A stretch of DNA of 64,000 bases from a candidate division TA06 bacterium B3_TA06 (GCA_005223075.1 NJBO01000003.1:9902-73901), one strand, 5' to 3'. Shown: positions 21,049 through 37,447, counted from the first letter of the stretch. The notes: generated from the sequence alone by a model not told the origin. Numbers and translations: made by a program.

Positions 21049-21057
21049 GAGGATGTA

Positions 21058-21957
21058 ATGAAGGTTTTAGTAAACGACGCCATCGCCCCCCAGGGCGTCC
21101 AGAAGCTGAAGGACGCAGGATTCGAGGTGGTGGTGGATCATCTCGAACCGGAGGATTTGAAAGCTCAGATCAAAGACTACGACGCCCTCATCGTGCGTTC
21201 GGCGACCAAGGTGCGCCGCGAGATCATCGAGGCCGCCGAGAACCTGAAGGTGATCGGTCGCGCCGGCGTTGGACTGGATAACGTGGACCGCGAGGCGGCC
21301 AAGGAGCGCGGCATTGCTGTCTACAACACCCCGGCAGCGACATCCATCTCGGTAGCTGAGCTTGCTCTGGGTATGATGCTTTCCGCGGCCCGGCACATCG
21401 CACAGGGCACGGTTAGCCTCAAGCAAGGCCGCTGGGACAAGAAGAAGTTCAAGGGTATTGAGCTTTACGGCAAGACACTGGGCATAATCGGCATGGGTCG
21501 CATCGGCTCCGAGCTGGCCAAGCGCGCCCGGGCCATGGGCATGAGTGTCTTCTTCTTCGACGCCGTAGTCTCCGAATCCGAGTTCGGCACCTACAAGGAG
21601 ATGGATGAGGTCCTGGCGGAGGCTGATTTCCTTTCCCTTCACCTGCCCCATAACGACAGCACCCATTACCTCATAAGCACCGATGCGTTTGCGAAGATGA
21701 AGGACGGAGCGATTCTTGTCAACGCTGCCCGCGGCGGTGTGGTTGATGAGGAGGCGCTGTATGAAGCGCTCACCTCCGGCAAGCTCAGAGCGGCCGCCGT
21801 AGACGTCTACGAGAGCGAACCTGTAACCGAGCACAAGCTCTTTAGTCTGGATAACGTGGTGCTCACCCCGCACGTGGGTGCCCAGGCCGCAGAAGGTCAG
21901 CAGCGCGCAGGCGTGCAGGTCGCAGAAAAGGTAATCGAGGCGCTCAAGGGGTCATAA
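21058..21957 (+). CDS. D-3-phosphoglycerate dehydrogenase-like 2-hydroxyacid dehydrogenase (no ACT domain)
   Basis: 299 aa; NAD-binding GIIGMGRIGSELAKRA and catalytic region; SerA-like. Confidence 0.8.
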   Translation: MKVLVNDAIAPQGVQKLKDAGFEVVVDHLEPEDLKAQIKDYDALIVRSATKVRREIIEAAENLKVIGRAGVGLDNVDREAAKERGIAVYNTPAATSISVAELALGMMLSAARHIAQGTVSLKQGRWDKKKFKGIELYGKTLGIIGMGRIGSELAKRARAMGMSVFFFDAVVSESEFGTYKEMDEVLAEADFLSLHLPHNDSTHYLISTDAFAKMKDGAILVNAARGGVVDEEALYEALTSGKLRAAAVDVYESEPVTEHKLFSLDNVVLTPHVGAQAAEGQQRAGVQVAEKVIEALKGS

Positions 21958-23247
21958 GTGGCAACCATACGACCGTTCAGAGGGCTTCGCTACAACCCGG
22001 AAGAGATAGCTGACCCCTCTCGTGTGATCACCCAGCCCTACGACAAGATAACGCCCCGGATGCAAGCGGAGTATTATGATCGGCACCCGCTGAACTATGT
22101 ACGCCTCATCTACGGACGCGAAGAAGACCGTTACCAGGAATCGGCGGATTTCTTCAACAAGTGGATGGAAGAGGGTCTCATCATCAAGGATGTCGAACCC
22201 GCACTCTACCCATATACCCAGACTTATAGGATTGAGGGTAATCCTGCCCCTATCACCCGCACCGGGTTCATCACCGCACTCAAGCTTCACCCTTACTCCG
22301 ACAGGGTGGTGCTTCCGCACGAGCGCACCCTGAAGGGGCCAAAACAGGATCGTTTCAAACTCTTTTCAAAGACACATAAGAACTACGAGCAGGTGTTCAT
22401 GCTCTACGCTGATTCCGACCGCAGGATCGAGAAGTTCTTTGAGCCTGCGATGGCCCAAAAGCCCCTGATGGAGGCGACGGACGATTATGATTGTATCCAC
22501 AGGGTTTGGCGGGTTTCTGATCCTGAGGTGATCGGCAAGGTTCAGGAGGTTCTTGCTCCCAAACCGGTAATGATCGCAGACGGTCACCACCGCTACGAGA
22601 CCGCGCTTGCACTCAAGGAGCATCTTGTCAAGGATCATCCCGATGTGCCTGACGCCTCGGCCTTCAACCACCGCATGGTGACACTGGTTAATCTGTTCGA
22701 TCCAGGACTGCTGGTGCTTCCTACCCATCGCTACGTGATAAAACTGAAAACCGACTTCGATACCGCCAAAGCGGAGATGGCAGAGTATTTCGAGATCACG
22801 CCGGTTGCCAAGGAAGAACTTGCGGTCAAGGTCAAGGAGAACGCGGATAAGCACGCGTTTGGCCTCTATCGTAAGGACGGTTCCTGGCTTCTGCTGCTCA
22901 AGGACGATGCCGTGATGGACGAGGTAATGCCCGCAGATCCGCCCCAGATCAAAGCGCTTGACGTATCTGTGCTGCACAACCTGGTGATCGAGAAGCTGTT
23001 GGATATCAGCAAGGAGGAGATCGAGTCATACATCCGCTACGAGCGCTACGTGGATAAAGCTTTCAGCCGTGTGGATTCCGGCGAGTTTGAGATATGCTTC
23101 CTCATGAACCCGACAAAGGTCGAGCAGGTTGAAGCGGTCTCGGCGGCCGGCGCCAGGATGCCGCAGAAGTCCACCGACTTCTACCCGAAGCTCGTTTCAG
23201 GTCTGGTGGCGTTTGACGTTTCTCCGGGCGAGGTTCTGCCCTGGTAG
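21958..23247 (+). CDS. DUF1015-family protein
   Basis: 429 aa; GTG start; N-terminal MATIRPFRGLRY resembles the conserved DUF1015 N-terminus (recalled, not searched). Confidence 0.55.
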   Translation: MATIRPFRGLRYNPEEIADPSRVITQPYDKITPRMQAEYYDRHPLNYVRLIYGREEDRYQESADFFNKWMEEGLIIKDVEPALYPYTQTYRIEGNPAPITRTGFITALKLHPYSDRVVLPHERTLKGPKQDRFKLFSKTHKNYEQVFMLYADSDRRIEKFFEPAMAQKPLMEATDDYDCIHRVWRVSDPEVIGKVQEVLAPKPVMIADGHHRYETALALKEHLVKDHPDVPDASAFNHRMVTLVNLFDPGLLVLPTHRYVIKLKTDFDTAKAEMAEYFEITPVAKEELAVKVKENADKHAFGLYRKDGSWLLLLKDDAVMDEVMPADPPQIKALDVSVLHNLVIEKLLDISKEEIESYIRYERYVDKAFSRVDSGEFEICFLMNPTKVEQVEAVSAAGARMPQKSTDFYPKLVSGLVAFDVSPGEVLPW

Positions 23248-23316
23248 CGGTGATAGCTTCAAGTTATTAAGAGTAGGGGCACGGCATGCCGTGCCCCTAC
23301 AATTTAGGAGGAAAGG

Positions 23317-26085
23317 ATGTCCCTGACGTTAGTTTTTGCGATACTTGCCGCACCCATAGATAGCCTCTGGCAGACTGAGTACGAGCACATACTTGAAGGG
23401 CTCCAGCTTATGAATCTTGAGGTTTCAGACCTGGGCTACGACAAGCTCTGGCGCGAAGACTCATTCAGGCTCGAGATCGTCAACGACCTCATGAACAACC
23501 CGCTGGACGTGCCTGACTACGTGCTTCTCTCAGGTAAAGAGATACGTGAGCTCTACCGGCCTTCCGACTACCTGAGGTTTACATGTCTGGAGCTTACCGG
23601 CAAGAGGTTCAGATCGGAGAAGATAAAAGCTGCAGATATCGAGGATGCGGTTAAAGAGGTGTTCGAATTGACCAGCCAGCATCTGGATAAGGCGTTTGAG
23701 GATTTAACCGAGGCGGAGCGCGACAGCCTCCTATACACCGCCCCTGCCTTGTGGTCTGACGAGGCCGACTCGTTAGAAAACGGCTACGCAGGCGCGCTGC
23801 ATAAAGAGTTCGGGATAGAGCGCGATACGAGTTACGGGTTGAAGCTGGTTGATCTGCTTCGCTTATCCCAGAAGGTGGATATCCGCGAGCTGCACGTTGC
23901 AGGGGCGAGTCTTGCTGATGGGGTGGAACAGATCATACCAATGGCTAAGGAGCTACTTGCGCAGGAGAACCCGCCACAGGTGCAGGTGGAGGGGGTTGAA
24001 GGAGTGGTCTACGCGGTCTACGATCTCCCCGATGGCCAGAAATGCGTTATCGGCGGACCGTGGCATAACACCTATACCGGTGATTTCGCGGTGATCATCG
24101 ATCTGGGCGGCAACGATGTCTACGAAGGACGGGCTGCAGGTGCGGTTGGCGAGCTGTGGACCGCGGTCAGCTTCGTGCTCGATCTTGCAGGAGACGACGT
24201 CTACCGCAACCGTACCAAGCTGGTTAACCAGGGTGCGGCGCTGTTCGGTGCGGCCTTATTATGGGATAAAGGCGGCAACGATTCCTACACAGGGTTCCAC
24301 ATCTCGCATGGTGCGGGTCTGTATGGGATCGGCATGTTGATCGACGAGGACGGAGAGGATTCATACAGGGCCGGGTTCTTCACCCAGGGGGCGGGCAACT
24401 TCGGATCAGGCGTTCTTGCCGATCGTGAAGGCGACGACACCTACCGCGCCTGGGACTGGACTCAAGGGTTAGGCGGCCCATGGGGATACGGGTTAATTGC
24501 CGACTACGAAGGCGACGATCTGTACTACGCTGGCGGGGTTCACATCCACCATCCCCTTACCCCTGACCAGTACCGCTCGTTCGCCCAGGGGTTCGGTTTC
24601 GGCTGGCGCGACGTGGCCTCCGGTGGGATAGGATTTTTATACGACCGTAAGGGCAACGATAAGTACATCTCAGAGATATACGCGCAGGCCACCTCCTACT
24701 GGTTCGCGTTAGGGATGCTTTTAGATGAACAGGGCAACGATTTGTACTCGGCGGCTCAGTACTCTCAAGGGTCAGGCATTCATTTATCGATAGGTGCGTT
24801 GATGGATCTGGAGGGCGACGATCACTACTTCTCGCGCTACGGTCCGTCCCAGGGTGAGGGGCACGATCTTGCGGTCGGCTGGCTTCTTGATGCCGACGGC
24901 GACGATGTGTATTACGCGTCAGGAGGTCAGGGGATCGGCCTGACCAACTCGGTAGGGATATTCGTGGACACAAGGGGTAACGACGACTACTGCTCCCGCG
25001 AGGGTCTAAGCCAGGGCGGGGCAAACTGGTCGCGAGGCACCGGGGGAGTGGGCATGTTTATCGACCTTCAGGGTAACGACCGCTACGCCGAGGAGGACAA
25101 GGGCGAAAATAACCACGTCTGGACCTCAGGCACCTTCGCCCTGGGTATGGACGTGGAGGCGGTCCAGCCGCGCAAGGAACCCTGGCAGGATACGGTTACC
25201 ACCTTCCCTGAGCTGGATACGTTAGAGACTGACTCGGCAAGGATGGCGAGGCTGTTCCACTACGCGTCGCTGTGGGAGGTGCGCGGCGACATCGGCAAGG
25301 TAAGGACAGCAAGAAGGATGCTGAAAGAGGATTACGCAGAGCAGGCGGTCTCATACATCTTCAACTACGAGTTCTGCACCTACAGCGGGCTGACGCTGCG
25401 GGCGATAGAGAAGCATTTTGCGGAGTTCAAGGACACCGCCGCCTACTATCTCTATCAAGGTCTTGAAGCAGACAACGACACCATCGTGCGCAACTCGATC
25501 TATCTCTTGGGTCAGCTGGAGATCGAGGGAGCAGCAGACACATTAATCAAAAAGCTTGAGGACAAACGCAACGACTCCCTGGCAGGCTCACTGGTCTCTG
25601 CGCTTGGGAAGTTAAAGGCAAATCAGGCGGTTCCTGCGATAGTCCACTACGCCGATCATCATAAGGAACGCATGAGGATTCTGGTGGCAGAGGCTTTCTC
25701 AAAGATAAAGGACGAAAGGGCCGTACCTGTCTTGATAGATGATCTTTCGGATCCCTACTTTACGGTCCGCGCCGCGGCGATGGCCGCTTTAGCCCAGATA
25801 GGTGAGGCGGCACTTGAACCCCTTGAGATTGAGTTGGACAAAGCACGCAAACCGGATTATCAGGCGACACTCCTGCGAGCACTGCGCAACGTCTATACGA
25901 AACTAGAGGACGAGGAGAAGACCTCAGACCTCAAGGAGCGCTTGGCTGAGCTTGCGCGGCCCTATCTTGATGCCTCCTACCCCGCACTTCGCGAACAGGC
26001 GCAAAAGCTCTTAGACGAGGTGGAAGGCCGCAGCATACTCTCTCCTACCGAGCTGTTCGGCTATCCTGAGCAAGCTTGGGATTGA
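23317..26085 (+). CDS. Large repeat protein: ~12 G(N/D)DxY repeats plus C-terminal HEAT/PBS-lyase-like repeats
   Basis: 922 aa; repeats GGNDVYEG, AGDDVYRN, GGNDSYTG, DGEDSYRAG, EGDDTYRAW, EGDDLYYAG, KGNDKYISE, QGNDLYSAA, EGDDHYFSR, DGDDVYYAS, RGNDDYCSR, QGNDRYAEE; immediately upstream of the paralog array. Confidence 0.55.
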   Translation: MSLTLVFAILAAPIDSLWQTEYEHILEGLQLMNLEVSDLGYDKLWREDSFRLEIVNDLMNNPLDVPDYVLLSGKEIRELYRPSDYLRFTCLELTGKRFRSEKIKAADIEDAVKEVFELTSQHLDKAFEDLTEAERDSLLYTAPALWSDEADSLENGYAGALHKEFGIERDTSYGLKLVDLLRLSQKVDIRELHVAGASLADGVEQIIPMAKELLAQENPPQVQVEGVEGVVYAVYDLPDGQKCVIGGPWHNTYTGDFAVIIDLGGNDVYEGRAAGAVGELWTAVSFVLDLAGDDVYRNRTKLVNQGAALFGAALLWDKGGNDSYTGFHISHGAGLYGIGMLIDEDGEDSYRAGFFTQGAGNFGSGVLADREGDDTYRAWDWTQGLGGPWGYGLIADYEGDDLYYAGGVHIHHPLTPDQYRSFAQGFGFGWRDVASGGIGFLYDRKGNDKYISEIYAQATSYWFALGMLLDEQGNDLYSAAQYSQGSGIHLSIGALMDLEGDDHYFSRYGPSQGEGHDLAVGWLLDADGDDVYYASGGQGIGLTNSVGIFVDTRGNDDYCSREGLSQGGANWSRGTGGVGMFIDLQGNDRYAEEDKGENNHVWTSGTFALGMDVEAVQPRKEPWQDTVTTFPELDTLETDSARMARLFHYASLWEVRGDIGKVRTARRMLKEDYAEQAVSYIFNYEFCTYSGLTLRAIEKHFAEFKDTAAYYLYQGLEADNDTIVRNSIYLLGQLEIEGAADTLIKKLEDKRNDSLAGSLVSALGKLKANQAVPAIVHYADHHKERMRILVAEAFSKIKDERAVPVLIDDLSDPYFTVRAAAMAALAQIGEAALEPLEIELDKARKPDYQATLLRALRNVYTKLEDEEKTSDLKERLAELARPYLDASYPALREQAQKLLDEVEGRSILSPTELFGYPEQAWD

Positions 26086-26295
26086 CGGAGCAATCTAGCA
26101 GAAAGTAAGGGCGCCTTTAGGGCATCTAAGACTCCAAAAACGACGAGTGGGAAGGGGCTACCCCAACCAAATTCTTGATATCATTTTTTTGATTTATAAC
26201 AAAAGCTCTTGACAATCATAAAATTTTGTGCATCATTAGGGATAGAAGGAAGATTTATGTCCTTCTTTCAGAAACCTTCAACCCAAGGAGGAGAT

Positions 26296-26745
26296 ATGCA
26301 TAACTCCAAAAAACTCATACTCGCCGTCCTGGCAGTTATCCTGCTGCTGGGAGCCACTCCGGCGTTCGCTCAGCTGGGCGGAACCTGGGAGGGCATAGGT
26401 AGGGGCGAAGCTTACCCGCCCTGTCACCCTCCTATACACCCCTGGCAGACGTGGAAGGGCGAGATCCCGGCCACCCAAGATGTCTTCACCGGCGAATGGT
26501 GGGATGCGGACGGCAATCACGGCACATTCAAGGGCGTGGTGGAGTTCTCACCCATTCCTGAGATAGCATACGCTGAAGGCGAATGGACATGGTACGACCC
26601 CACAGGCCACTCTCAGCAACCAATAGTCGGCGGCAAGTTCAAGATGACGTTCTACATCCTGGAAAAAAGATGCGAAGGCACCTGGACATCCATCTGGCCC
26701 TCACCCAGCGATCACGGCACCATGAAAGGCTGGAAGGTAGATTAA
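26296..26745 (+). CDS. Array paralog 1: small Sec-secreted Trp/Cys-rich protein, subtype A
   Basis: 150 aa; start placed at ATG 26296 (SD aaggagg); signal MHNSKKLILAVLAVILLLGATPAFA; PPCHPPIHPWQTWKGEIP ... GTMKGWKVD. Confidence 0.7.
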   Translation: MHNSKKLILAVLAVILLLGATPAFAQLGGTWEGIGRGEAYPPCHPPIHPWQTWKGEIPATQDVFTGEWWDADGNHGTFKGVVEFSPIPEIAYAEGEWTWYDPTGHSQQPIVGGKFKMTFYILEKRCEGTWTSIWPSPSDHGTMKGWKVD

Positions 26746-26809
26746 CCTTCCATGAAACTCGGAGGGGCAGATTTCTGCCCCTCCTCACAGATCACAAAAG
26801 GAGTAAGAG

Positions 26810-27253
26810 ATGAGTAACTTCAAAAAACTCACGATCGCCGCGCTCGCGGTGATCTTTCTGATCGGAGCAACGCCTATTGCCGCCGAGCTCGACGGCATCT
26901 GGGAAGGCCATGGCGATGGAACCTGGCGGCCACCAAGCGGCATAGTACCTGTTCACCCCTGGCAAACCTGGAAAGGCACCGTCGAGAACGGACGCTTTTA
27001 CGGGGAGTGGTACGATAGCACAGGCGCCCACGGCAGATTCCAAGGCGTCATACCATCCTTAACCCAAGAGGTAGCATACTGCGAAGGCTTCTGGACGTGG
27101 GTAGATGAAGGTTGCGACCCACCACGGGAGATCACCGTAGGTCCGTTCGAGATGGATTTTCACTACGTCATTGAAACATGCAGGGGCGCATGGTGGAGTG
27201 AACTTACCGCCGTCCCGCAAGGACACATGTGGGGCCGAAGGACAGGCCCGTAG
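26810..27253 (+). CDS. Array paralog 2, subtype B-like
   Basis: 147 aa; signal MSNFKKLTIAALAVIFLIGATPIAA; HPWQTWKGTVENG ... CEGFWTWVD. Confidence 0.7.
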   Translation: MSNFKKLTIAALAVIFLIGATPIAAELDGIWEGHGDGTWRPPSGIVPVHPWQTWKGTVENGRFYGEWYDSTGAHGRFQGVIPSLTQEVAYCEGFWTWVDEGCDPPREITVGPFEMDFHYVIETCRGAWWSELTAVPQGHMWGRRTGP

Positions 27254-27326
27254 GGCATAATAGAAACCAAGCAGGGGGCGGGGTTACTCGCCCCCTCATA
27301 AACCTAAAACCTCAAAGGAGGAACAA

Positions 27327-27773
27327 ATGAGCAACTCCAAAAAACTCATAATCGCCCTCGCCGTGATCTTCTTGGTTGGGGCAACACCTGCCTTGGCCGA
27401 TCTCGATGGTATTTGGGAAGGCTATGGTAATGGCAGCTACTACTTACCTGACGGTAGCATCATCTACCCATGGCAAAGCTGGAACGGTACTGTCGAGAAT
27501 GGAGTCTTCAGCGGCTCCTGGGAAGATGACGAAGGCAACTCCGGCGGTTTCACAGGAGGCATCACATGCTTCTTCACTACTGTCCCACCCTCATATACGT
27601 TTGCCGGCTGCGAAGGAACCTGGACGTGGATTGACCCCAGCGGCTTAGAACCCATTGAACTAGGGAGCTTCTGGATGACGTTCAACGTAGACCTTGACAC
27701 CTGCTGGGGCGAATGGTTGCCTTACACTAATGCTCAGGGTGGAACCATGTGGGGCTGGAGGATAGGAGACTGA
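27327..27773 (+). CDS. Array paralog 3, subtype B
   Basis: 148 aa; YPWQSWNGTVENG ... CEGTWTWID ... GGTMWGWRIGD. Confidence 0.7.
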   Translation: MSNSKKLIIALAVIFLVGATPALADLDGIWEGYGNGSYYLPDGSIIYPWQSWNGTVENGVFSGSWEDDEGNSGGFTGGITCFFTTVPPSYTFAGCEGTWTWIDPSGLEPIELGSFWMTFNVDLDTCWGEWLPYTNAQGGTMWGWRIGD

Positions 27774-27846
27774 GGCATAATAGAAACCAACCAGGGGGCG
27801 GGGTTACTCGCCCCCTCATAAACCTTAAACCAAAAGGAGGAACAAA

Positions 27847-28302
27847 ATGAGTAACTCCAAAAAACTCCTCATCGCCCTGGCTGTGATACTTGCAGTCGGG
27901 GCAACGCCCCTCCTCGCACAACTTGAAGGACCGTGGGCAGGCAATGGCGAAGGAAGCTGCAAGACACCCACCGGAATCACTATCTACCCTTGGCAGGAGT
28001 GGGACGGCTTCGTGGAGAATGGAGCCTTCGACGGCAGTTGGTGGGACGGCGACAACGGCGGCAACTTTCACGGCGACATAATATCCATCAGCACCCCAGT
28101 CCCACCCGCGGAACCACATGACGTAGCATACTGTGAAGGCACCTGGACATGGGTAAATGACGAGGGGGAGGAGATATCTATGGGCCAGTTCTGGATGAAC
28201 TTTGACCTCCTCTACGGAACATGCGAAGGTGAATGGTGGCCTTGCAATCGCCCTGAGCCTTGGGGCCCGGGAATCATGTGGGGCTGGAGGATAGGAGACT
28301 GA
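27847..28302 (+). CDS. Array paralog 4, subtype B
   Basis: 151 aa; YPWQEWDGFVENG ... CEGTWTWVND ... IMWGWRIGD. Confidence 0.7.
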   Translation: MSNSKKLLIALAVILAVGATPLLAQLEGPWAGNGEGSCKTPTGITIYPWQEWDGFVENGAFDGSWWDGDNGGNFHGDIISISTPVPPAEPHDVAYCEGTWTWVNDEGEEISMGQFWMNFDLLYGTCEGEWWPCNRPEPWGPGIMWGWRIGD

Positions 28303-28375
28303 GGCATAATAGAAACCAAGCAGGGGGCGGGGTTACTCGCCCCCTCATAAACCTTAAACCTCAAAGGAGGAACAA

Positions 28376-28813
28376 ATGAGCACCCCAAAAAAAATCCTGC
28401 TAACCGCTTTGGCGGTGATCCTTTTACTAGGGGCCACGCCTATTGCCGCCCAGATCGCAGGAGTCTGGGAGGGCACCGGTAAAGGCGCAGCTTACCCGCC
28501 CTGCCACCTACCTATATATCCATGGCAGAAATGGATAGGCGAGATACCAAACTCTGAAGACGTCTTTTTCGGCGAGTGGAAAGACACCCTTGACAACCAC
28601 GGCAGATTCGAAGGCAAGCCTGCACCTTACTCCACTCCTGATGCGAAGGTGTTCAAAGGCTACTGGACCTGGGAAACCCCCGAAGGGATATTCAAAGGCG
28701 GCGAATTCACGATGACCTTTTACTTCTTGGAAGGCGAATGCAAGGGCACCTGGACATCCATCTGGCCTTCGCCGGGCAAGCTGGGAACCATGAGAGGCTG
28801 GAAGGTGCACTGA
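28376..28813 (+). CDS. Array paralog 5, subtype A
   Basis: 145 aa; PPCHLPIYPWQKWIGEIP ... GTMRGWKVH. Confidence 0.7.
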   Translation: MSTPKKILLTALAVILLLGATPIAAQIAGVWEGTGKGAAYPPCHLPIYPWQKWIGEIPNSEDVFFGEWKDTLDNHGRFEGKPAPYSTPDAKVFKGYWTWETPEGIFKGGEFTMTFYFLEGECKGTWTSIWPSPGKLGTMRGWKVH

Positions 28814-28880
28814 AGCATACAACCAACCAGGGGGCGGCCCTCCGCCCCCTATAAACCTTAAACCTCAAAGGAGGAACAAA

Positions 28881-29318
28881 ATGAGTAACCCCAAAAAACT
28901 CCTCATCGCCGCGCTTGCGGTGATCTTCCTGCTCGGCGCAACGCCCCTTGCCGCCGAGCTAGACGGGTTCTGGGCAGGAACTGGCACTGGCTGCTGCCAT
29001 CCAGAGTCCACCACCATCACCATATACCCCTGGCAGACATGGGACGGCTTCGTCGTGAACCACGAGATCTTTCACGGTGAGTGGCAAGATAGCTTAGGAC
29101 ACCAAGGCACCTTCGAAGGAAGAGTCGTCCAGATAGACTCAACCTATGCGGTTTTCGAAGGCACGTGGAGATGGACTGACCCCACCATACTCATAATCCC
29201 TCCTGTTATAGGCGAGTTCCATATGGACTTCGATCTTCTCACCCGCACCTGCCTGGGCGAATGGTTCTACCATGAGGACTACGGAACCATGCAAGGACAA
29301 AAACTGGAGACAAAATAA
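28881..29318 (+). CDS. Array paralog 6, divergent B-like
   Basis: 145 aa; GCCHPESTTITIYPWQTWDGFVVN ... GTMQGQKLETK. Confidence 0.7.
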   Translation: MSNPKKLLIAALAVIFLLGATPLAAELDGFWAGTGTGCCHPESTTITIYPWQTWDGFVVNHEIFHGEWQDSLGHQGTFEGRVVQIDSTYAVFEGTWRWTDPTILIIPPVIGEFHMDFDLLTRTCLGEWFYHEDYGTMQGQKLETK

Positions 29319-29393
29319 GAAAGAACAGACAAACCAACCAGGGGGCGGGGTTACTCGCCCCCTCATAAACCTTAAACCTCAAAGGAGGAACAA

Positions 29394-29834
29394 ATGAGCA
29401 CCCCAAAAAAAATCCTGCTAACCGGTTTGGCGGTAATCCTTTTACTAGGGGCCACGCCGCTTGCCGCCCAGATCGCAGGAAGATGGGAGGGTACTGGTAC
29501 AGGCGAAGCTTACCCGCCCTGCCACCCGCCTATACACCCCTGGCAGATCTGGATGGGCGAGATCCCGCTCACTCAGGATGTTTTCACAGGCGAATGGTGT
29601 GACGCGGACTGCAATCACGGCACCTTCAAGGGCGAGATAGCCCCTTTCTCAACTCCAGAGGAAGCATACTGTGAAGGTTATTGGACGTGGGATGATCCTT
29701 CCAGCCCGTCCATCATTGTAGGCCATTTCAAGATGACGTTCTACATCCTGGAAGGAATATGCGAAGGCACCTGGACATCCATCTGGCCATCGCCCAGCGG
29801 TCCCGGAACCATGAAAGGCTGGAAGATAGACTGA
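29394..29834 (+). CDS. Array paralog 7, subtype A
   Basis: 146 aa; PPCHPPIHPWQIWMGEIP ... GTMKGWKID; 5' end nearly identical at nucleotide level to paralogs 5 and 12. Confidence 0.7.
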   Translation: MSTPKKILLTGLAVILLLGATPLAAQIAGRWEGTGTGEAYPPCHPPIHPWQIWMGEIPLTQDVFTGEWCDADCNHGTFKGEIAPFSTPEEAYCEGYWTWDDPSSPSIIVGHFKMTFYILEGICEGTWTSIWPSPSGPGTMKGWKID

Positions 29835-29907
29835 GGTATACCTCGACAGACCATCAGGGGGCGGCCCTCCGCCCCCTTACAAACCTTAAACCAAAAGGAG
29901 GAACAAA

Positions 29908-30342
29908 ATGAGTAACTCCAAAAAACTCCTCATCGCCGCGCTTGCGGTGATCTTCCTCGCAGGGGCTACGCCTCTCGCCGCCCAGCTCGCAGGAGTCTGG
30001 GCAGGCACGGGCGAAGGCTGCTGCAGCCCTCCCGGAACTACCATCTACCCTTGGCAGACGTGGAAGGGTGAAATACCCAACAGCCAAGACGTGTTTTCCG
30101 GCAAGTGGTGGGACGCAGATAGCAACCGGGGCACCTTCCACGGAAAGATAATAATCTCCAGTGTCACCGAAGCATACTGCGAAGGTATCTGGAACTTAGA
30201 TGACCCTTCAGGGGCTTCAATCATTGGAGGTGATTTCAAGATGACATTCTACATCCTGGAAGGAACATGCGAAGGCACCTGGATATCCATCTGGCCCACC
30301 GCCTTACCCGCAACCATGAGAGGCTGGAAGGTAGAACCGTAA
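29908..30342 (+). CDS. Array paralog 8, A/B mosaic
   Basis: 144 aa; B-type signal peptide with A-type body (YPWQTWKGEIPNSQDVFSGKWWD ... TMRGWKVEP). Confidence 0.7.
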   Translation: MSNSKKLLIAALAVIFLAGATPLAAQLAGVWAGTGEGCCSPPGTTIYPWQTWKGEIPNSQDVFSGKWWDADSNRGTFHGKIIISSVTEAYCEGIWNLDDPSGASIIGGDFKMTFYILEGTCEGTWISIWPTALPATMRGWKVEP

Positions 30343-30406
30343 AGTCACAACCTAGGGGGCGGGCTTGTGCCCCCTCATAAACCTCAAACCTCAAAGGAGG
30401 AACAAA

Positions 30407-30856
30407 ATGCACAACTATAAAAAACTCATACTCGCCGCCCTGGCAGTTATCCTGCTGCTGGGAGCCACTCCGGCGTTCGCTCAGCTGGCCGGAACCTGGG
30501 AGGGCACTGGTAGGGGCGAAGCTTACCCGCCCTGCCACCCTCCTATACACCCCTGGCAAAACTGGATAGGCGAGATCCCGAACTCTCAGGATGTGTTTTT
30601 CGGCGAATGGTGGGACTCGGACTGCAATCACGGCACCTTCAAGGGCGAAATAGCCCCTTTCTCCACTCCAGAGGAAGTATACTGTGAAGGCGAATGGACA
30701 TGGTACGACCCCACAGGCTCCTCTCACCAACCAATAGTCGGCGGCAAGTTCAAGATGACGTTCTACATCCTGGAAGGAAGATGCGAAGGCACCTGGACCT
30801 CCATATGGCCATCGCCCAGCGAGCACGGAACCATGAGAGGCAGGAAGGTACACTGA
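30407..30856 (+). CDS. Array paralog 9, subtype A
   Basis: 149 aa; start placed at ATG 30407 after SD aaaggagg; ends GTMRGRKVH. Confidence 0.7.
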   Translation: MHNYKKLILAALAVILLLGATPAFAQLAGTWEGTGRGEAYPPCHPPIHPWQNWIGEIPNSQDVFFGEWWDSDCNHGTFKGEIAPFSTPEEVYCEGEWTWYDPTGSSHQPIVGGKFKMTFYILEGRCEGTWTSIWPSPSEHGTMRGRKVH

Positions 30857-30925
30857 ACCTTAACGCCGAGCGGGGACGGGTTTCCATCCCCGCTCGGGAT
30901 AAACCTTAAACCAAAAGGAGAAGCA

Positions 30926-31354
30926 ATGAGTAACTCCAAAAAGCTAATGCTCACCGCCTTGGCGGTGATCTTTCTGATCGGAGCGACGCCTCTCTTCGCC
31001 GATCTCGACGGCATCTGGGAAGGCTACGGCGAAGGAAGCTGCGAGACACCCGCTGGAACCATCATCTACCCCTGGCAAACCTGGAACGGAACCGTTGATG
31101 AATACGGGTACTTCTCCGGCGAGTGGGAAGACTCGGACGGCAATCAAGGCACCTTCGAAGGCTGCATGGCGTCCCTGAACCCCCCAGTCTGCCCGGGGGT
31201 ATGGACATGGAGAGACGATTCGAGTCTCGAACCCATCGAGATGGGCCTATTCCAGATGGTCTTTTACGAGGTCCAAGGAACATGCAACGGCGAATGGTGG
31301 CCGTACTCTGGCGCTCAGGGTGGAACCATGTGGGGCTGGAGTATAGGAGACTAA
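30926..31354 (+). CDS. Array paralog 10, subtype B
   Basis: 142 aa; YPWQTWNGTVDEYG ... GGTMWGWSIGD. Confidence 0.7.
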   Translation: MSNSKKLMLTALAVIFLIGATPLFADLDGIWEGYGEGSCETPAGTIIYPWQTWNGTVDEYGYFSGEWEDSDGNQGTFEGCMASLNPPVCPGVWTWRDDSSLEPIEMGLFQMVFYEVQGTCNGEWWPYSGAQGGTMWGWSIGD

Positions 31355-31425
31355 GGCATAATAGAAACCAACCAGGGGGCGGCCATCCGCCCCCACTTAA
31401 ACCCTAAACCTCAAAGGAGGAACAA

Positions 31426-31875
31426 ATGAGTAACCCCAAAAAAATCCTCATCGCCGCGCTTGCGGTGATCTTCCTCGCAGGGGCGACGCCGCTTCTTGCC
31501 CAACTCAACGGTACATGGGCGGGCGAAGGAGAAGGCGTTTGCTCTCCGCCTCCCCCTATACCTACCGACTTCCCCATCTATGCTTGGCAGAACTGGAAAG
31601 GTCTGGTTGAGGATAATGAAGTCTTCTACGGCGAGTGGTACGATAACCGCTGTAACAACGGCACCTTCAAAGGCGAGATCGTATTCGTAACTCCCGAGGA
31701 TGCATACTGCGAAGGCGAGTGGCACTGGTTCGACGAACGCTACGACCCTCCGCGTGTCTACTACATGGGACCGTTTTCGATGAAGTTCAAGCTGGAAGAA
31801 GCAATATGCTACGGTGAATGGCGGACTTACTACAGTAATGAGAGCGGAACCATGAAAGGAGAAAAGATAGACTGA
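31426..31875 (+). CDS. Array paralog 11, divergent
   Basis: 149 aa; FPIYAWQNWKGLVEDNEVFYGEWYD ... GTMKGEKID. Confidence 0.7.
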   Translation: MSNPKKILIAALAVIFLAGATPLLAQLNGTWAGEGEGVCSPPPPIPTDFPIYAWQNWKGLVEDNEVFYGEWYDNRCNNGTFKGEIVFVTPEDAYCEGEWHWFDERYDPPRVYYMGPFSMKFKLEEAICYGEWRTYYSNESGTMKGEKID

Positions 31876-31953
31876 GGATATACCGGGAAACCGGCTAACC
31901 CAGGGGGCGGGCTTCCGCCCCCTGATAAACCCTAAACCTCAAAGGAGGAACAA

Positions 31954-32400
31954 ATGAGCACCCCAAAAAAAATCCTGCTAACAGGTTTGGCGGTGATCCT
32001 TTTACTAGGGGCCACGCCGCTTGCCGCCCAGATCGCAGGCACATGGGAAGGCACCGGAACCAGCTGCTGCTGTCCACACCCGGGCACGATCATCTACCCC
32101 TGGCAGGCGTGGGTAGGTGAGATCCCCAACTCCCAGGACGTCTTCACCGGCGAGTGGAAAGACAGCCTCGACAACCGCGGCACATTCAAGGGCGAAATCC
32201 TCTGGATCAGCACCACCGTCGCCATCGCCAGAGGTTCCTGGTACTGGTTCGATCCTACCGGTCCCAGTCACGAACCGGTCTACGGAGGCGACTTCGAGAT
32301 GAAGTTCTACGTCTACGAGAGGGAGTGCACCGGCACCTGGACATCCATCTGGCTATCGCCCAGCGAACACGGAACCATGAGAGGCAGAAAGGTACACTAA
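31954..32400 (+). CDS. Array paralog 12, subtype A
   Basis: 148 aa; CCCPHPGTIIYPWQAWVGEIP ... GTMRGRKVH. Confidence 0.7.
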   Translation: MSTPKKILLTGLAVILLLGATPLAAQIAGTWEGTGTSCCCPHPGTIIYPWQAWVGEIPNSQDVFTGEWKDSLDNRGTFKGEILWISTTVAIARGSWYWFDPTGPSHEPVYGGDFEMKFYVYERECTGTWTSIWLSPSEHGTMRGRKVH

Positions 32401-32466
32401 ACCTAAAGCCGAGGGGGGCGCAAACCCGTCCCCCTCGGGATGAACCTTAAACCAAAAGGAGAAGCA

Positions 32467-32922
32467 ATGAGTAACTCCAAAAAGCTAATGCTCACCGCCT
32501 TGGCGGTGATCTTTCTGATCGGAGCAACGCCGCTCTTCGCAGAACTCGACGGCATCTGGGAAGGCTACGGCGAAGGAAGCTGCGAGACACCCGCTGGAAT
32601 CATCATCTACCCCTGGCAAACCTGGAACGGCAGCCTGGAGTCATGGCTCTTCACCGGCCACTGGCAAGACTTGGACGGCAGCTCCGGCGGCTTCCAGGGG
32701 GCCGTCATATCCCTCGCCAAATCCGTTGAACCGCCTTACCATACGGTTGCTCACTGCGAAGGAACCTGGACGTGGATGGATCCCAGCGGCTTAGAACCCC
32801 TCGAAATGGGTCCCTTCAATATGGAGTTCAATCTGGACATTGACACCTGCTGGGGCAACTGGTACTCCTATTCTAGCCCCGGAATTGGCGGAACCATGTG
32901 GGGCTGGAGGATAGGAGACTGA
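32467..32922 (+). CDS. Array paralog 13, subtype B
   Basis: 151 aa; start placed at ATG 32467; first ~45 codons and upstream intergenic region nearly identical to paralog 10. Confidence 0.7.
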   Translation: MSNSKKLMLTALAVIFLIGATPLFAELDGIWEGYGEGSCETPAGIIIYPWQTWNGSLESWLFTGHWQDLDGSSGGFQGAVISLAKSVEPPYHTVAHCEGTWTWMDPSGLEPLEMGPFNMEFNLDIDTCWGNWYSYSSPGIGGTMWGWRIGD

Positions 32923-32942
32923 GGTATAATAGAAACCAACCA

Positions 32943-32971
32943 GGGGGCGGGCATCCGCCCCCGATTTTTTT
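32943..32971 (+). terminator. Intrinsic terminator closing the paralog array
   Basis: gggggcgg-gcat-ccgccccc followed by gattttttta; the only array hairpin with a T-tract. Confidence 0.7.
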
Positions 32972-32974
32972 AAA

Positions 32975-33012
32975 CCCCACACGGGCGCTTTACGTGCCCG
33001 TGCGGGGACCCC
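32975..33012 (-). repeat. R1 hairpin repeat (reverse orientation)
   Basis: ccccacacgggcgctttacgtgcccgtgcggggacccc. Confidence 0.65.
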
Positions 33013-33118
33013 GGACATTCAGACTCAAAGATGGAATCTAAATCCCCGGTCAGATGCTTTAATCCTTTACCCTCTTGATTTCCCCCCATAACTGGATACA
33101 ATCCCTTAGGAGAAGTTA

Positions 33119-33643
33119 ATGAAGACGGTTGTTGTTTACTATTCCCGCTACGGTAACTCGCGGGTGGCGGCGCGCTTGATAGCAAAACATCTTCAAGCAC
33201 CCGTGCACCGCATAGAGGTCAAGCGCCACAGAGGAGTGGTTAGGTCTACGTTCTCCGCCCTTTTCGGGCGTCGTCCTGAGATCAAAACCATCCCTCTACA
33301 ACCCCAGGACTGGGACCTGATGGTAATTGTTGTTCCGATATGGTCAGGCAGGCCGGCAACACCTCTTAAAACCTTCCTTGCCGAGACACGACTTGCCGAA
33401 AAGCAGGTGGCTGTGTTCTTTTCATACACCAAAACCGATCCCCACAAACGCCCTTCGCGCTGGATGCAAAAGGTGTTGGGGCACTTCGGTGCGCGGCTCG
33501 TTGCCGTAGGCGGGTACAACATCTCCCTTAAGAATCACACCGTACTCAAGCAGCGGATCTGGGACTTCCTCGCCCAGCTCCCACCCCAAGCCATCCCATC
33601 GACTCCCTCCAAGAAATCCGCCAGGCGCAGCCCTCAAAAATAG
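33119..33643 (+). CDS. Flavodoxin-like fold protein (putative)
   Basis: 174 aa; N-terminus MKTVVVYYSRYGNS resembles flavodoxin-type phosphate-binding loop. Confidence 0.45.
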   Translation: MKTVVVYYSRYGNSRVAARLIAKHLQAPVHRIEVKRHRGVVRSTFSALFGRRPEIKTIPLQPQDWDLMVIVVPIWSGRPATPLKTFLAETRLAEKQVAVFFSYTKTDPHKRPSRWMQKVLGHFGARLVAVGGYNISLKNHTVLKQRIWDFLAQLPPQAIPSTPSKKSARRSPQK

Positions 33644-33718
33644 CCTGCCCCTTTCCAAGGTGTTGCACTTCACCATTGAACTCACGAACCCCTGTCCCTT
33701 AAACCGAATTGAAATGTT

Positions 33719-34381
33719 TTACTTGCTCTTCATCCTCGTGGTAAGCAGACCGATAAAGGAGCTGAGTGAGCGCGTCTGCATGATGACTTTGCCAGGGCCG
33801 GTGAAGCTTGCGACCAGGCCCTCGCCCGAAAGAAGTGTGCTCTTCAGGCCGCCTACGGCCTTTACGTTGTACTGCACGTCCTCATCGAAAGCGACCATGT
33901 GCCCGGTATCCACCTTGAGTTCCTGACCGGCAGGCAGTTCACGCTCGGTCATCGCCCCGTAGGAGGACAGGAAAAGATCGCCGGTGCCTGAGATCTTCAG
34001 AAGGAACAGACCTTCGCCGGAGAAGAATGTTTTGGCGCCGCCGAACTTCGTGTCTACCTCGATGTCTCCTACCGAGCAGATGAACGAGCCGGATTGGACA
34101 AACAGGGTGTTGCCGACCATCGGGACGTGTTTGATGTCGCCCGGGACGGAAGAGGCAAGGGTTACTTCGCCTGTGCCGGTGTAGTGGTTCATGAAGAAGC
34201 TCTCGCCGCCCAGGAGTGAACGCTTGAGTGCTCCGCCAAGACCGCCTCGCATCTTGGTTTCGATGTTGATGGTACCGTCCATTGAGACCATCGCTCCGGC
34301 TTCAGCGGTAATCTTTTCGCCCTCGCCGATCCGGATCGAAAGCAGGGAAAACGCAGGTCCATACTCTATCTTGTGTTCCAT
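33719..34381 (-). CDS. AIM24/TIGR00266-like family protein (putative)
   Basis: 220 aa, Gly-rich beta-strand pattern; assignment from recalled family pattern. Confidence 0.5.
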   Translation of the reverse strand: MEHKIEYGPAFSLLSIRIGEGEKITAEAGAMVSMDGTINIETKMRGGLGGALKRSLLGGESFFMNHYTGTGEVTLASSVPGDIKHVPMVGNTLFVQSGSFICSVGDIEVDTKFGGAKTFFSGEGLFLLKISGTGDLFLSSYGAMTERELPAGQELKVDTGHMVAFDEDVQYNVKAVGGLKSTLLSGEGLVASFTGPGKVIMQTRSLSSFIGLLTTRMKSK

Positions 34382-34447
34382 TTACGCCTCCTTATTTGAT
34401 TGGCTGTGTATAATTCTCAGAATCGAGCGCTTGTCAAGCAATTTATA

Positions 34448-34483
34448 CCCCACGTCTTCACTTCGTGAAGCCGCGGGGACCCC
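34448..34483 (-). repeat. R1 hairpin repeat (reverse orientation)
   Basis: ccccacgtcttcacttcgtgaagccgcggggacccc. Confidence 0.65.
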
Positions 34484-34490
34484 GATTTTT

Positions 34491-34527
34491 GCTCCTTTTT
34501 GCCTTCGGCAAAAAGATCGCAAAGGAG
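34491..34527 (+). repeat. R8 hairpin repeat
   Basis: gctcctttttgccttcggcaaaaagatcgcaaaggag. Confidence 0.6.
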
Positions 34528-34642
34528 AAAAACACATTATCTCTGGGAATAAATCACTACGTCCTTCCGACTCCTGCGAATCAATTTCTCCGAGCCTCTA
34601 CAAGAAGGCGAAGCATTCGTTGTTTCGGCAAAAACTTCCTCC

Positions 34643-34674
34643 CTGCGATCTTTTCTCAGTATGAGAAAAGGAGC
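34643..34674 (-). repeat. R8 hairpin repeat (reverse orientation)
   Basis: ctgcgatcttttctcagtatgagaaaaggagc. Confidence 0.55.
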
Positions 34675-34719
34675 ATGTGAAAAACCGGGGCCGTGAGGCC
34701 CCGGCTCTTTGTGGTCTTT

Positions 34720-36135
34720 CTAGGGTCGGATGGTTAGAAAGTGCGTGTGCCCTCTACGGTTAATCTGGAAAAGGGCCACGTCTGCCTTCTCCAGATCACC
34801 TTTCAGTCTCTTTAACTCTTTGACGTTAGAGATGAGGATTTTGTTGACTTTAATGATTACGTCTCCGACCCTGATTCCTGCCCTGTCGGCCAGACTGCCG
34901 GGTTCGACATCCTCCACCAGAACCCCATGCTTGAGATCATATTCCTTCTTGATTCTGTCACTTATGTCTTTGACCGTTATGCCAAGGATAGATGTCTTGG
35001 TCCCTTTCTCCTCTTCGGGTACAGGCTCGATGCGGGTGGAGAGTTCCTCGCGGCCAGGGCGTTCGGCAAGCCTCAGGGTTATCTTCCTGCGTTTGCCTTC
35101 ACGGATAATATCAAGGTCTACCTTTGTGCCAGGTGCAGTGCTTGCGGCAAGCCAGCGAAGCTGATCTACCGAGGTTATCTTTTCTCCGGCAAACGAGGTG
35201 ATTAGGTCGCCGTCCTCCAGACCCGCCTTCTCGGCCGGTGAGTCGGGAACAACCCTGGTTACAAAAACCCCTTCTTCCTCGATATCCATTGCTTCAAGCA
35301 CCTCAGGTTTGACTTCCTCGAGGTATATCCCCATATAGCCGCGTGAGATCTTGCCGTGCTTGATAAGCTCGCCTGCGATATCGGCGGCCATGTCAGAAGG
35401 AATGGCGAACCCTATACCTGAGTTCGCAAGCCCGTTCGTACGGATAGCGGTGTTGATGCCGATGACCTCGCCATTGATGTTGCATAATGCTCCGCCCGAG
35501 TTGCCCGGGTTGATTGCCGCGTCGGTCTGCAGGAAGTTCTGGTAGCTTGGACCGCCATATAGGAGCACGTTACTGCGTCCCTTGGCACTTACCACGCCCA
35601 CTGTCACGGTTTGCTCAAGGTTGTAGGGGTTGCCGATGGCAATCGCCCAGTCGCCGACCTTGACCTCTTCAGAGCTGGCAAACTTCGCTACCGGGAGGGG
35701 GTCCTTGGCTTTGATCTTGAGAACGGCGAGGTCGGTCTCAGGGTCTGTGCCGATGACTTCCACGTCTTTGCCGGAGAACTCCCTGCCGTCTGACAACTTT
35801 ACTCCGATATCCTTAGCGCCATCAACCACGTGGTTGTTTGTCAGTATGTATCCTCGTTCATCGAAGATCACGCCGGAGGCGGCACCCGGAACAAACCGGG
35901 GGGCACGTGGAGCAGGGATGTCGAAGTCCCAAAATTCAAAGAACTTACGAAGTTCTTCCGGGACACTCTCCTCGTCGAAATCGAACCCCTGAACGAATGG
36001 AACCTCCTTTGTCACGGTGATACCGACCACCGCCGGCGCCACCTTATCCACCACCTCGCTGAATCCTTCAAGCGGTACAGCAGAGTTGAGTGCTGCCGAT
36101 GAGATAAGGATCAAAATGCTTAGAACTCTTCTCAT
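34720..36135 (-). CDS. htrA: HtrA/DegP-family periplasmic serine protease with two PDZ domains
   Basis: 471 aa; signal peptide; trypsin-like core GYILTNNHVV ... GNSGGAL; SD aaggagg. Confidence 0.9.
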   Translation of the reverse strand: MRRVLSILILISSAALNSAVPLEGFSEVVDKVAPAVVGITVTKEVPFVQGFDFDEESVPEELRKFFEFWDFDIPAPRAPRFVPGAASGVIFDERGYILTNNHVVDGAKDIGVKLSDGREFSGKDVEVIGTDPETDLAVLKIKAKDPLPVAKFASSEEVKVGDWAIAIGNPYNLEQTVTVGVVSAKGRSNVLLYGGPSYQNFLQTDAAINPGNSGGALCNINGEVIGINTAIRTNGLANSGIGFAIPSDMAADIAGELIKHGKISRGYMGIYLEEVKPEVLEAMDIEEEGVFVTRVVPDSPAEKAGLEDGDLITSFAGEKITSVDQLRWLAASTAPGTKVDLDIIREGKRRKITLRLAERPGREELSTRIEPVPEEEKGTKTSILGITVKDISDRIKKEYDLKHGVLVEDVEPGSLADRAGIRVGDVIIKVNKILISNVKELKRLKGDLEKADVALFQINRRGHTHFLTIRP

Positions 36136-36186
36136 CTTTTTCCTCCTTACGGTTATTATTGCAACTTTATCCTTACTCCTTACTCT

Positions 36187-36813
36187 TTACCTGTAGATGG
36201 TCTCCCCTACGGTAACGATCCACCCTTCGTCTTCTTGAGGTATATGGAACCGAGGCCCTTGTCTGAAGTGGGGGGTCTTAGCGGCCTCTAAGTTCTGCCT
36301 GGCCGTCTCATCAAGCGGGATAAGAATAACTGTATCATGCGAAGGCTCCTCATAGGCTGCAACATGTACATCTGAGTGGTTGGTTTGGGATGATTGACCG
36401 AACCCCTGAGCGTGTGCCAGCCCAAGCGGCGGGCCAAGGGGTTCGGCTGCGGGTTCAATTACCAGTGGTGTTACGGGTTCCGCTCGAGGCTCAGGAGTGG
36501 TGCTGTGGGGAAGAAGTATAAGGAGAGCTATTGCAGCACTTATTGCAAATCCCAGGACTATCCCGCGCCACAACCCCTGAGTTTTTGGAGCCTTGGAGGC
36601 AGAAATACGTGCACGGACGCCTGCAAGGAGACCTGGAGGAACCTCAACAGGCTCAAGGCTTTCTGCCAGATCCTTAATGTGAACAATCTCTGCAAGGCGC
36701 CTCTTACACCCTGAGCACCCCTTAAGGTGACTTGCCAGGTGAGTTTTTTCCGCTCCACTCAAATCCCCGTCGGCGTAGCGGGATAGGGTTGCATCAGACG
36801 GGTGTCGGCCCAT
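36187..36813 (-). CDS. Anti-sigma factor with zinc-finger (HC2-type) N-terminus
   Basis: Start placed at internal ATG 36811-36813 (SD ggagg upstream; MGRHPSDATLSRYADGDLSGAEKTHLASHLKGCSGCKRRL); ORF-track start 36855 lies inside the sigma-factor gene. Confidence 0.6.
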   Translation of the reverse strand: MGRHPSDATLSRYADGDLSGAEKTHLASHLKGCSGCKRRLAEIVHIKDLAESLEPVEVPPGLLAGVRARISASKAPKTQGLWRGIVLGFAISAAIALLILLPHSTTPEPRAEPVTPLVIEPAAEPLGPPLGLAHAQGFGQSSQTNHSDVHVAAYEEPSHDTVILIPLDETARQNLEAAKTPHFRQGPRFHIPQEDEGWIVTVGETIYR

Positions 36814-37447
36814 TGCGCCTCCGGATTCCTTTAAGTTTTTTCCGCAAGATAACACGCGAACGATGCAGGAGCGACTTGGACGAACCCGCTGTGATACCCA
36901 GGATTTCTGCTATCTCTGCGTGACGGAAACCCTGGATGTCATGAAGCACAAAGACGCTGCGGTAGCTGGGCGACAGGCTTGCAACGGCCTTCTCGAGCTC
37001 AATGCGTGCATCGTGATCGCGCTTCGGCGAGGCCATCCACTCCTGAAGCTCGACCGTCTTAAGCTTCTTGCGCCTCATTCGATCAATGCAGTGGTTCATC
37101 GTGATCCTGTATATCCAGGTCGAAAGCTTCGAACGACCGGCGAACTTGTGCAAGTTCTTGTAGACCTTAACAAACACATCCTGTGTCGCGTCCTGTGCGT
37201 CGGCACGGTTGGCAAACATCCTGTAGCAGAGGTTGTAAACCATAGCCCCGTGGTTGGCATAGATTTGCTCCAGTTTCTTTTCTCGTTCGCGCTCCCCCAC
37301 ATCACCGCGGGCTTGCTGGGCAGCCTGCCCGCTTGTTAGCGTTACCGTTAACCCCTCGGTTTCCATCACTCTCTTTTGACGTGAAGAACCCCTGAAAGGT
37401 TCGCTTGCTCGCCTGGATTTGCCCATATCACGAAGCCGATTCATCAC
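36794..37447 (-). CDS. ECF-type RNA polymerase sigma-70 family factor
   Basis: 217 aa; region 2 (IYRITMNHCIDRMRRKK) and region 4 (RSVFVLHDIQGFRHAEIAEILGITAGSSKSLLHRSR); true start may be ATG 37444 or a downstream Met. Confidence 0.85.
   Translation of the reverse strand: MMNRLRDMGKSRRASEPFRGSSRQKRVMETEGLTVTLTSGQAAQQARGDVGEREREKKLEQIYANHGAMVYNLCYRMFANRADAQDATQDVFVKVYKNLHKFAGRSKLSTWIYRITMNHCIDRMRRKKLKTVELQEWMASPKRDHDARIELEKAVASLSPSYRSVFVLHDIQGFRHAEIAEILGITAGSSKSLLHRSRVILRKKLKGIRRRNGPTPV

Follow-up and report, generated by a model that had tools for sequence, protein, structure and literature searches.

The window analysed here, a stretch of 64,000 nucleotides from candidate division TA06 bacterium B3_TA06 (GCA_005223075.1 NJBO01000003.1:9902-73901), contains a tandem array of 13 genes for small proteins with predicted export signals. 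The protein family is real and previously unannotated and its fold class is known, while its arrangement as an operon array is unusual and hypervariable. The interpretation that we tentatively favour is that the array encodes a set of exported scaffolds for binding or inhibition, a repertoire that evolves by birth and death.

According to an open reading frame (ORF) list of the 22-35 kb region, window positions 26296-32922 hold 13 genes, all on the + strand, that encode proteins of 142-151 amino acids (aa); their starts were trimmed to a common M[SH][NT]xKK start. The family hidden Markov model (HMM), searched against the 64-kb window, returned exactly 13 members, every one inside the array. 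The ORF list, the trimmed starts and the HMM thus agree with the gene number, orientation, sizes and coordinates given in an earlier reading of this DNA by a model, made from the sequence alone (the original prediction). These genes correspond to CEE36_02865-02925, each annotated as 'hypothetical protein'. When aligned, the 13 proteins display 38 invariant columns, among which are the core motifs listed in the prediction, and 45-81% identity to the first paralog, p1. They are listed here with the clades (A, B and C) that are described below.

p1, 26296-26745, + strand: 149 aa, clade A
p2, 26810-27253, + strand: 147 aa, clade B
p3, 27327-27773, + strand: 148 aa, clade B
p4, 27847-28302, + strand: 151 aa, clade B
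p5, 28376-28813, + strand: 145 aa, clade A
p6, 28881-29318, + strand: 145 aa, basal to clade A
p7, 29394-29834, + strand: 146 aa, clade A
p8, 29908-30342, + strand: 144 aa, clade A
p9, 30407-30856, + strand: 149 aa, clade A; sequence used for the structure model
p10, 30926-31354, + strand: 142 aa, clade B
p11, 31426-31875, + strand: 149 aa, clade C
p12, 31954-32400, + strand: 148 aa, clade A; sole clear ortholog of a gene in locus L003 (89% aa identity)
p13, 32467-32922, + strand: 151 aa, clade B

In a tree built from 66 array members of eight loci, three old clades were resolved: clade A with p1, 5, 7, 8, 9 and 12 (and p6 at its base), clade B with p2, 3, 4, 10 and 13, and clade C with p11. 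Two interleaved subtypes had been proposed; the tree has three clades instead, and they are not regularly interleaved. All the arrays examined contain clades A and C, and those with three genes have the order A-C-B. Between paralogs, synonymous sites are close to saturated, the mean proportion of synonymous differences (pS) being 0.61. The corresponding ratio of non-synonymous to synonymous differences (pN/pS) equals 0.30 in the signal peptide, 0.50 in the strands and 0.67 in the loops and exceeds 1 in no comparison. The dN/dS analysis between paralogs that was suggested with the prediction points to purifying selection; positive selection was not detected (omega, i.e. dN/dS, of 0.2-0.6). By these comparisons the paralogs are ancient and under purifying selection, and several of them have orthologs in other genomes that are closer than any sister in the array. 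Synonymous divergence (dS) is 0.10 in the signal peptide and ~1.1 in the mature part both for p5-p7 and for p7-p12, while for p7-p9 it is 1.7 and 0.4, respectively. Because the two parts disagree between pairs, segmental gene conversion is indicated, in which the signal-peptide segment was exchanged independently of the mature part. The mosaic genes mentioned in the prediction are explained in this way.

Syntenic loci in related genomes (designated by L numbers) carry between 3 and ~27 genes of the family: three in each of L010, L016 and L018, four in L012, six in L003, 11 in L001, 13 in the window and at least 24 in L009. Absence of the array from close relatives, combined with signs of an assembly artefact, had been named as grounds for rejecting the prediction. 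What we found are same-locus arrays in independent assemblies, at seven distinct loci, by which an artefact is ruled out; the proposed diversification holds in that the array is both real and diverged. L003 belongs to a very close relative, whose flanking proteins are 93-99% identical to those of the window (dS 0.03-0.42, omega 0.02-0.20). Only one of its six array genes, L003_06, looks orthologous to a window gene, p12 (89% aa and 91% nucleotide identity, dS 0.25), and identity falls to 48-81% in the other best matches between the two arrays. Omega is 0.21-0.58 in those pairs whose dS resembles that of the flanks. Since p12 alone has a clear ortholog in L003 despite the similar flanks, the gene content of the array changes much faster than the region around it. 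The turnover consists of gain, loss and exchange of old paralogs and not of fast point substitution. Along window positions 19975-37447, dS to L003 was also observed to rise toward the array, both from the right (DegP 0.03, AIM24 0.06, flavodoxin-like gene 0.11) and from the left (SerC-like gene 0.24, DUF1015 0.27, HEAT gene 0.42). This gradient may have been left by recombination, or by balancing selection, with the array at its centre.

We read the array as one 13-cistron transcript that extends from the promoter at 26209-26236 to a hairpin with a T-run at 32943-32970. The non-coding features are as follows.

Promoter-like region, 26176-26236, + strand: AT-rich tract, TTGACA at 26209-26214, 16-nt spacer, CATCAT at 26231-26236
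5' leader, 26243-26295, + strand: inverted repeat GAAGGAAG..CCTTCTTTC and Shine-Dalgarno sequence AAGGAGGAG
Hairpin 1, 26761-26784, + strand: folding free energy (dG) -21.2 kcal/mol, no U-run
Hairpin 2, 27273-27296, + strand: dG -21.1 kcal/mol
Hairpin 3, 27793-27816, + strand: intercistronic GC hairpin
Hairpin 4, 28322-28345, + strand: intercistronic GC hairpin
Hairpin 5, 28829-28850, + strand: intercistronic GC hairpin
Hairpin 6, 29340-29363, + strand: intercistronic GC hairpin
Hairpin 7, 29856-29877, + strand: intercistronic GC hairpin
Hairpin 8, 30354-30375, + strand: intercistronic GC hairpin
Hairpin 9, 30866-30897, + strand: dG -26.3 kcal/mol; different sequence, same structure
Hairpin 10, 31375-31394, + strand: intercistronic GC hairpin
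Hairpin 11, 31901-31924, + strand: intercistronic GC hairpin
Hairpin 12, 32409-32438, + strand: dG -25.1 kcal/mol
Intrinsic-terminator-like site, 32943-32970, + strand: GGGGGCGGGCATCCGCCCCC then GATTTTTTT, 3' of p13

The TTGACA/CATCAT site agrees with the consensus at 10 of 12 positions in a consensus scan, and its TTGACA box lies ~85 nt 5' of p1. This box and the CATTTTTTTGATTTAT tract upstream of it are invariant in five genomes, and the leader is near-invariant across the window, L003, L010, L016 and L018; promoter and leader are thus nearly unchanged in five genomes whose coding arrays differ greatly. The inverted repeat of the leader would form a 5' stabilising hairpin. Each of the 12 spacers (64-78 nt) contains a GC hairpin of 8-12 bp without a U-run (dG -15 to -26 kcal/mol), followed by an AGGAG site ahead of the next start codon, as the prediction had described; in hairpins 9 and 12 the structure is kept and the sequence is different. 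We infer that the intercistronic hairpins are stabilising or processing elements. The hairpin 3' of p13 is the only one in the array with a T-run after it, and the same array ending occurs in L003, L010, L001, L009 and L012. A search of the whole window against Rfam gave no match to a known RNA or riboswitch. A conserved CCUC-AAAG-GAGG (or CCUU...AAGG) pairing was also noted in the spacers, e.g. at 27310-27322 and 28359-28371; it could mask each Shine-Dalgarno site, although the significance of a 4-bp pairing is doubtful.

A strong conserved promoter, with a consensus Shine-Dalgarno sequence before and a stabilising hairpin after every cistron, might be expected if the barrels were abundant in the envelope, as structural or protective components, and the many genes served to raise output. 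Dosage arrays stay near-identical, however, whereas the copies here are 45-81% identical with pS of ~0.6 and fall into clades older than the species, and some relatives hold just 3 or 4 copies. A structural role of this kind is therefore very unlikely. The dosage pressure offered in the original prediction fails on the same divergence and on the closer orthologs outside the array, which show that the array is not a recent amplification.

Every protein starts with a K-K n-region and a hydrophobic core that ends in TP-x-x-A, with no lipobox Cys. By the -3/-1 rule, a mark of signal-peptidase-I sites, this N-terminus is the Sec signal that was predicted for every gene, and we infer both cleavage after TP-x-x-A and the location after export from it. 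The mature protein of 117-127 aa corresponds to the barrel alone and is acidic, with an isoelectric point (pI) of 4.05-5.9 and a mass of 13-14.6 kDa. In an alignment of 110 family sequences, M117, M143 and C126 are conserved at 98-99% (C126 at 99%), W31 is invariant, G29 is ~90% conserved and no conserved His was found. C126 co-occurs with a Cys in loop 1 in 90 of the 110 sequences, and the two may form a disulfide; Cys-rich variants of this loop include CC, CCC and CH.

The AlphaFold2 model of p9, built with the 110-sequence alignment, has eight beta-strands at a predicted local distance difference test score (pLDDT) of 88.3 and a predicted template modelling score (pTM) of 0.78, with the signal peptide rendered as a low-confidence helix apart from the fold. 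The conserved Gly, Trp, Phe and Met residues alternate on one face of every strand, which is 5% polar, 40% W/F/Y/M and 39% Gly, while the opposite face is 65% polar. Together these features indicate a soluble eight-stranded up-and-down barrel with an aromatic/glycine core, as modelled; the polarity of the strand faces and the low pI are the reasons for calling it soluble and not a membrane barrel. Membrane barrels of the OmpA, OmpX, OmpW or PagP type were rejected because no hydrophobic lipid-facing strand surface is present. An internal four-hairpin repeat gave a weak signal (hhalign best P 7.7e-5, 62% probability), and an origin of the barrel from such a repeat is suggestive only.

On the repertoire reading, the 13 paralogs would be co-transcribed as a polycistronic operon in a chromosomal housekeeping context, and each product would pass through Sec and be cut by signal peptidase I after TP-x-x-A. 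The mature barrel would be soluble and either periplasmic or released. Almost all of its conserved residues (Gly, Trp, Phe, Met) would pack the interior, while the polar face and the loops vary among paralogs. Through these variable surfaces the paralogs would bind targets that differ from one another, with proteins or enzymes, or polymers, as the most plausible kinds. The gene set would change through birth and death together with segmental gene conversion. The anatomy fits highly expressed exported isoforms on one rigid scaffold. The analysis itself establishes the genes with their export signals, how the operon is built, the fold, the narrow distribution, the age of the paralogs, the mode of selection and the turnover in copy number, whereas a binding activity and the type of target are presumed. 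Binding, immunity or antagonism, as the prediction put it, is still the most reasonable functional class, although it is deduced and no positive selection was detected in its support. Several points weigh against the reading. The proteins have no known ligand, partner or phenotype, and no neighbour gene points to a target. Omega is below 1 in every comparison, so that an arms race is not demonstrated, and the modelled barrel interior looks filled. Finally, the closest structural relatives, the Slam-cargo barrels, bind through a handle domain that is absent from the array proteins, and for this reason the similarity of fold says little about activity.

Slam/type 11 secretion system (T11SS) cargo proteins (hemophilin HphA, TbpB, LbpB, fHbp, NHBA, HpuA) have in common with the modelled array proteins an eight-stranded soluble barrel, at 9-19% identity and with no profile match. 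Among the Slam-cargo Pfam models, none matched the 110 members significantly, the single HphA_N match (E 0.12) being below the cutoff. In Slam cargo the ligand is bound via the N-terminal handle domain, and the role of the barrel itself is unclear (10.1101/2023.03.29.534853). The array proteins, in contrast, are barrel-only and have no lipobox, whereas the cargo proteins carry the N-terminal handle, or clamp, domain. Slam cargo occurs in Proteobacteria, and the array family in WOR-3/TA06 and in tandem arrays. Neither a Slam/DUF560 protein nor a TonB-dependent receptor was found among annotated neighbours in the window and six related loci, a search that did not extend to the whole genome.

Foldseek matches of the model were weak (best E 8.5e-4, TM-scores of 0.4-0.53) and included PvdP, NHBA, nitrobindins, Gid4 and lipocalins; nitrobindins and Rv2717c ranked 3rd-10th (E ~2e-3), and anticalins were also listed beside the lipocalins. 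The array barrels resemble calycins (nitrobindin/THAP4-like proteins, lipocalins, avidins) in a similar-size up-and-down barrel and a strand-1 G-x-W, the defining mark of calycins, and with nitrobindin they share the strand-1 motif L-x-G-T-W-x-G-x-G-x-G. The barrels could accordingly act as carriers that bind a small ligand (hydrophobic, tetrapyrrole or metal) within the barrel or at its mouth, as lipocalins, nitrobindin or avidin do, with paralogs tuned to different ligands, and the interior rich in Trp, Phe and Met, the conservation of M117, M143 and C126 and the Cys-rich loop-1 variants would suit such a role. Calycin-type Foldseek matches, however, combine a probability of ~1.0 with TM-scores of only 0.4-0.5, and the array barrels have eight strands compared to ten in nitrobindin. 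The nitrobindin match itself is not significant, and homology was rejected (hmmsearch E 0.23; hhalign aligned 11 residues, the first-strand motif, at 4% probability). The Pfam lipocalin and THAP4_heme-bd models found no match in the family. Furthermore, no His is conserved, the alternation of Gly and aromatics would suggest that the core is filled and encloses no cavity, and the array has neither a linked riboswitch nor a linked transporter. We regard a carrier function as unlikely. The family shares its fold class with Slam cargo and with calycins and belongs to neither.

As predicted, no established family recognises these proteins by sequence. Four paralogs searched against Pfam, NCBIfam and PADLOC, and 110 members against Pfam, gave nothing significant, and two family profiles found only chance-level matches among PDB sequences (gamma-crystallin E 0.15, Fab light chains, nitrobindin E 0.23). 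An extended-profile search returned no annotated relatives. A confident match to a characterised family of known housekeeping role, which would have told against the prediction, was thus found in none of the libraries, and the structural matches stop at the weak Foldseek values given above. MORN repeat proteins were approached by 4 of the 110 members (MORN_2, E 0.07-0.09), at 13.5 bits compared to a cutoff of 29.6. An origin from phage or defence systems was rejected, with no PADLOC match and no relative on IMG/VR viral contigs.

The family is narrowly distributed. A profile search of 5.8 billion proteins yielded 114 clusters of 88-200 aa (mostly 140-156) without Pfam domains, and those with a named source came from TA06, Stahlbacteria or WOR-3 metagenome-assembled genomes (MAGs). 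When 1.84 billion representatives were scanned exhaustively with the HMM, only 86 matched, and species-representative genomes contained four loci, all of WOR-3 or Stahlbacteria. WOR-3/Stahlbacteria MAGs have been described as fermentative sediment bacteria (PMC5569505), and the first isolate of the WOR-3/TA06 lineage was reported in 2025 (PMC12285271). Distant members were found in Verrucomicrobiota (Opitutales, Puniceicoccaceae), where a signal peptide and a BsuPI proteinase-inhibitor domain (PF12690, E 4e-20 and 3e-19) are fused to the barrel. On the Verrucomicrobiota contigs (L005-L007) the fusion protein is 288 aa long (L005 gene, 1434-2300), and its gene shows translational coupling to two genes, encoding 64 and 230 aa, without assigned function. 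Genes sharing operons with distant homologs gave no clue to function.

This BsuPI-barrel fusion is the only domain-fusion clue, and it is in favour of periplasmic inhibitor or immunity proteins directed against hydrolases, e.g. the cell's own or competitors' proteases, with one enzyme for each paralog as in a poly-immunity array. The fast shifts in gene number and content between close relatives also agree with such proteins, and small periplasmic eight-stranded barrels include the serralysin inhibitors Inh/APRin, the staphostatins and the lysozyme inhibitors MliC/PliC. No sequence or close structural match connects the array proteins to these barrel-type inhibitors, and we consider this role unlikely. 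Poly-immunity arrays and multigene lipoprotein families resemble the array in their same-strand paralogs with conserved signal peptides and divergent mature parts, in segmental gene conversion and in rapid copy-number change. In contrast to these families, the present array comprises one family in one operon at a fixed core-chromosome locus with omega below 1, and neither a cognate toxin nor a mobile-element context was found at it.

The repertoire reading also has a bolder form, which we rate as doubtful: a natural 'anticalin-like' system, in which a rigid Gly/Trp-zippered mini-barrel has been diversified, through duplication, loss and gene conversion, into strain-specific exported binders or inhibitors and is kept variable by balancing or frequency-dependent selection. 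Such selection could be exerted, e.g., by envelope-attacking enzymes of competitors or phages, and would explain the almost non-overlapping sets in near-identical genomes. Should the repertoire reading itself be true, the array would exemplify how an anaerobic sediment bacterium diversifies its secreted binders at the population level, and it would provide a marker locus for typing strains in WOR-3/Stahlbacteria metagenomes. The family appears built for high expression, and its gene number varies nine-fold between relatives. Gly alternating with Trp on the inward strand face mirrors the design rules of de novo barrels. Compared with the designed beta-barrels b10 and BB1 (PDB 6czj, 6d0t), the array proteins are natural, exported and Cys-containing, with long variable loops, and the likeness is one of structural convergence, not ancestry. 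The family therefore lends itself, as a natural example, to tests of barrel folding and might supply a compact binder scaffold.

Immediately upstream of the array lies the gene for a 922-aa protein that matches CEE36_02860 of candidate division TA06 bacterium B3_TA06 at 100% identity and that was suspected of a functional link to the array. Its model (pLDDT 83.6) has three parts, namely a helical N-domain, a Ca-type beta-solenoid and C-terminal HEAT repeats. The barrels could be clients, substrates or partners of this protein, which adjoins them in every Stahlbacteria-clade locus examined. Both are apparently exported, the homologs of the large protein having clear signal peptides, and its weak HEAT_PBS similarity recalls Cys-directed bilin lyases, the barrels possessing a 99%-conserved Cys. 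The adjacency is uninformative, however, since synteny in this clade extends to every flanking gene. A conserved promoter of its own precedes the array, and the 922-aa family is far broader, with >1,144 clusters (WOR-3, Latescibacteria, Edwardsbacteria), ~10 times the ~114 of the barrel family. Homologs in L020, L021 and L022 (58%, 41% and 41% identity) have no adjoining array, and in L012 MscL and DUF3078 genes on the opposite strand lie between the homolog and the array. A partnership is highly improbable, and the functional link is not supported.

The surrounding genes are of housekeeping type (serine-pathway genes, DUF1015, DegP, an extracytoplasmic function (ECF) sigma factor, PEPCK, DnaE), from which it follows that the array locus is part of the core chromosome. 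Directly 3' of the array in most relatives is a flavodoxin-like gene, found in the window at 33119-33643 (+ strand; 174 aa, Flavodoxin_5 borderline) with its own promoter-like site at 33075-33102; no evidence of a functional link to the array was found. Just downstream of the array region, positions 34720-37447 (- strand) contain an envelope-stress-like cluster (ECF sigma factor, zf-HC2 anti-sigma factor and a two-PDZ DegP/HtrA protease), which is syntenic in L003. At 39909-44151 (+ strand) a DUF1858-DUF438-hemerythrin-PAS_10 sensor-like protein is followed by a P-type (heavy-metal) ATPase with an HMA domain, and a similar P-type ATPase with HMA proteins occurs ~6 kb from the array in L012. 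An Eco57I-type N6-methyltransferase/restriction gene (~1,145 aa) lies between the DUF1015 and HEAT genes in L001 (3448-6882) and L012 (490-3933) and is absent from the window. Three consecutive ORFs of 228, 196 and 253 aa without Pfam matches occupy window positions 17768-19799 (+ strand), a stretch of low GC content (0.42 compared to ~0.54), and are conserved in L010 (226, 221 and 254 aa).

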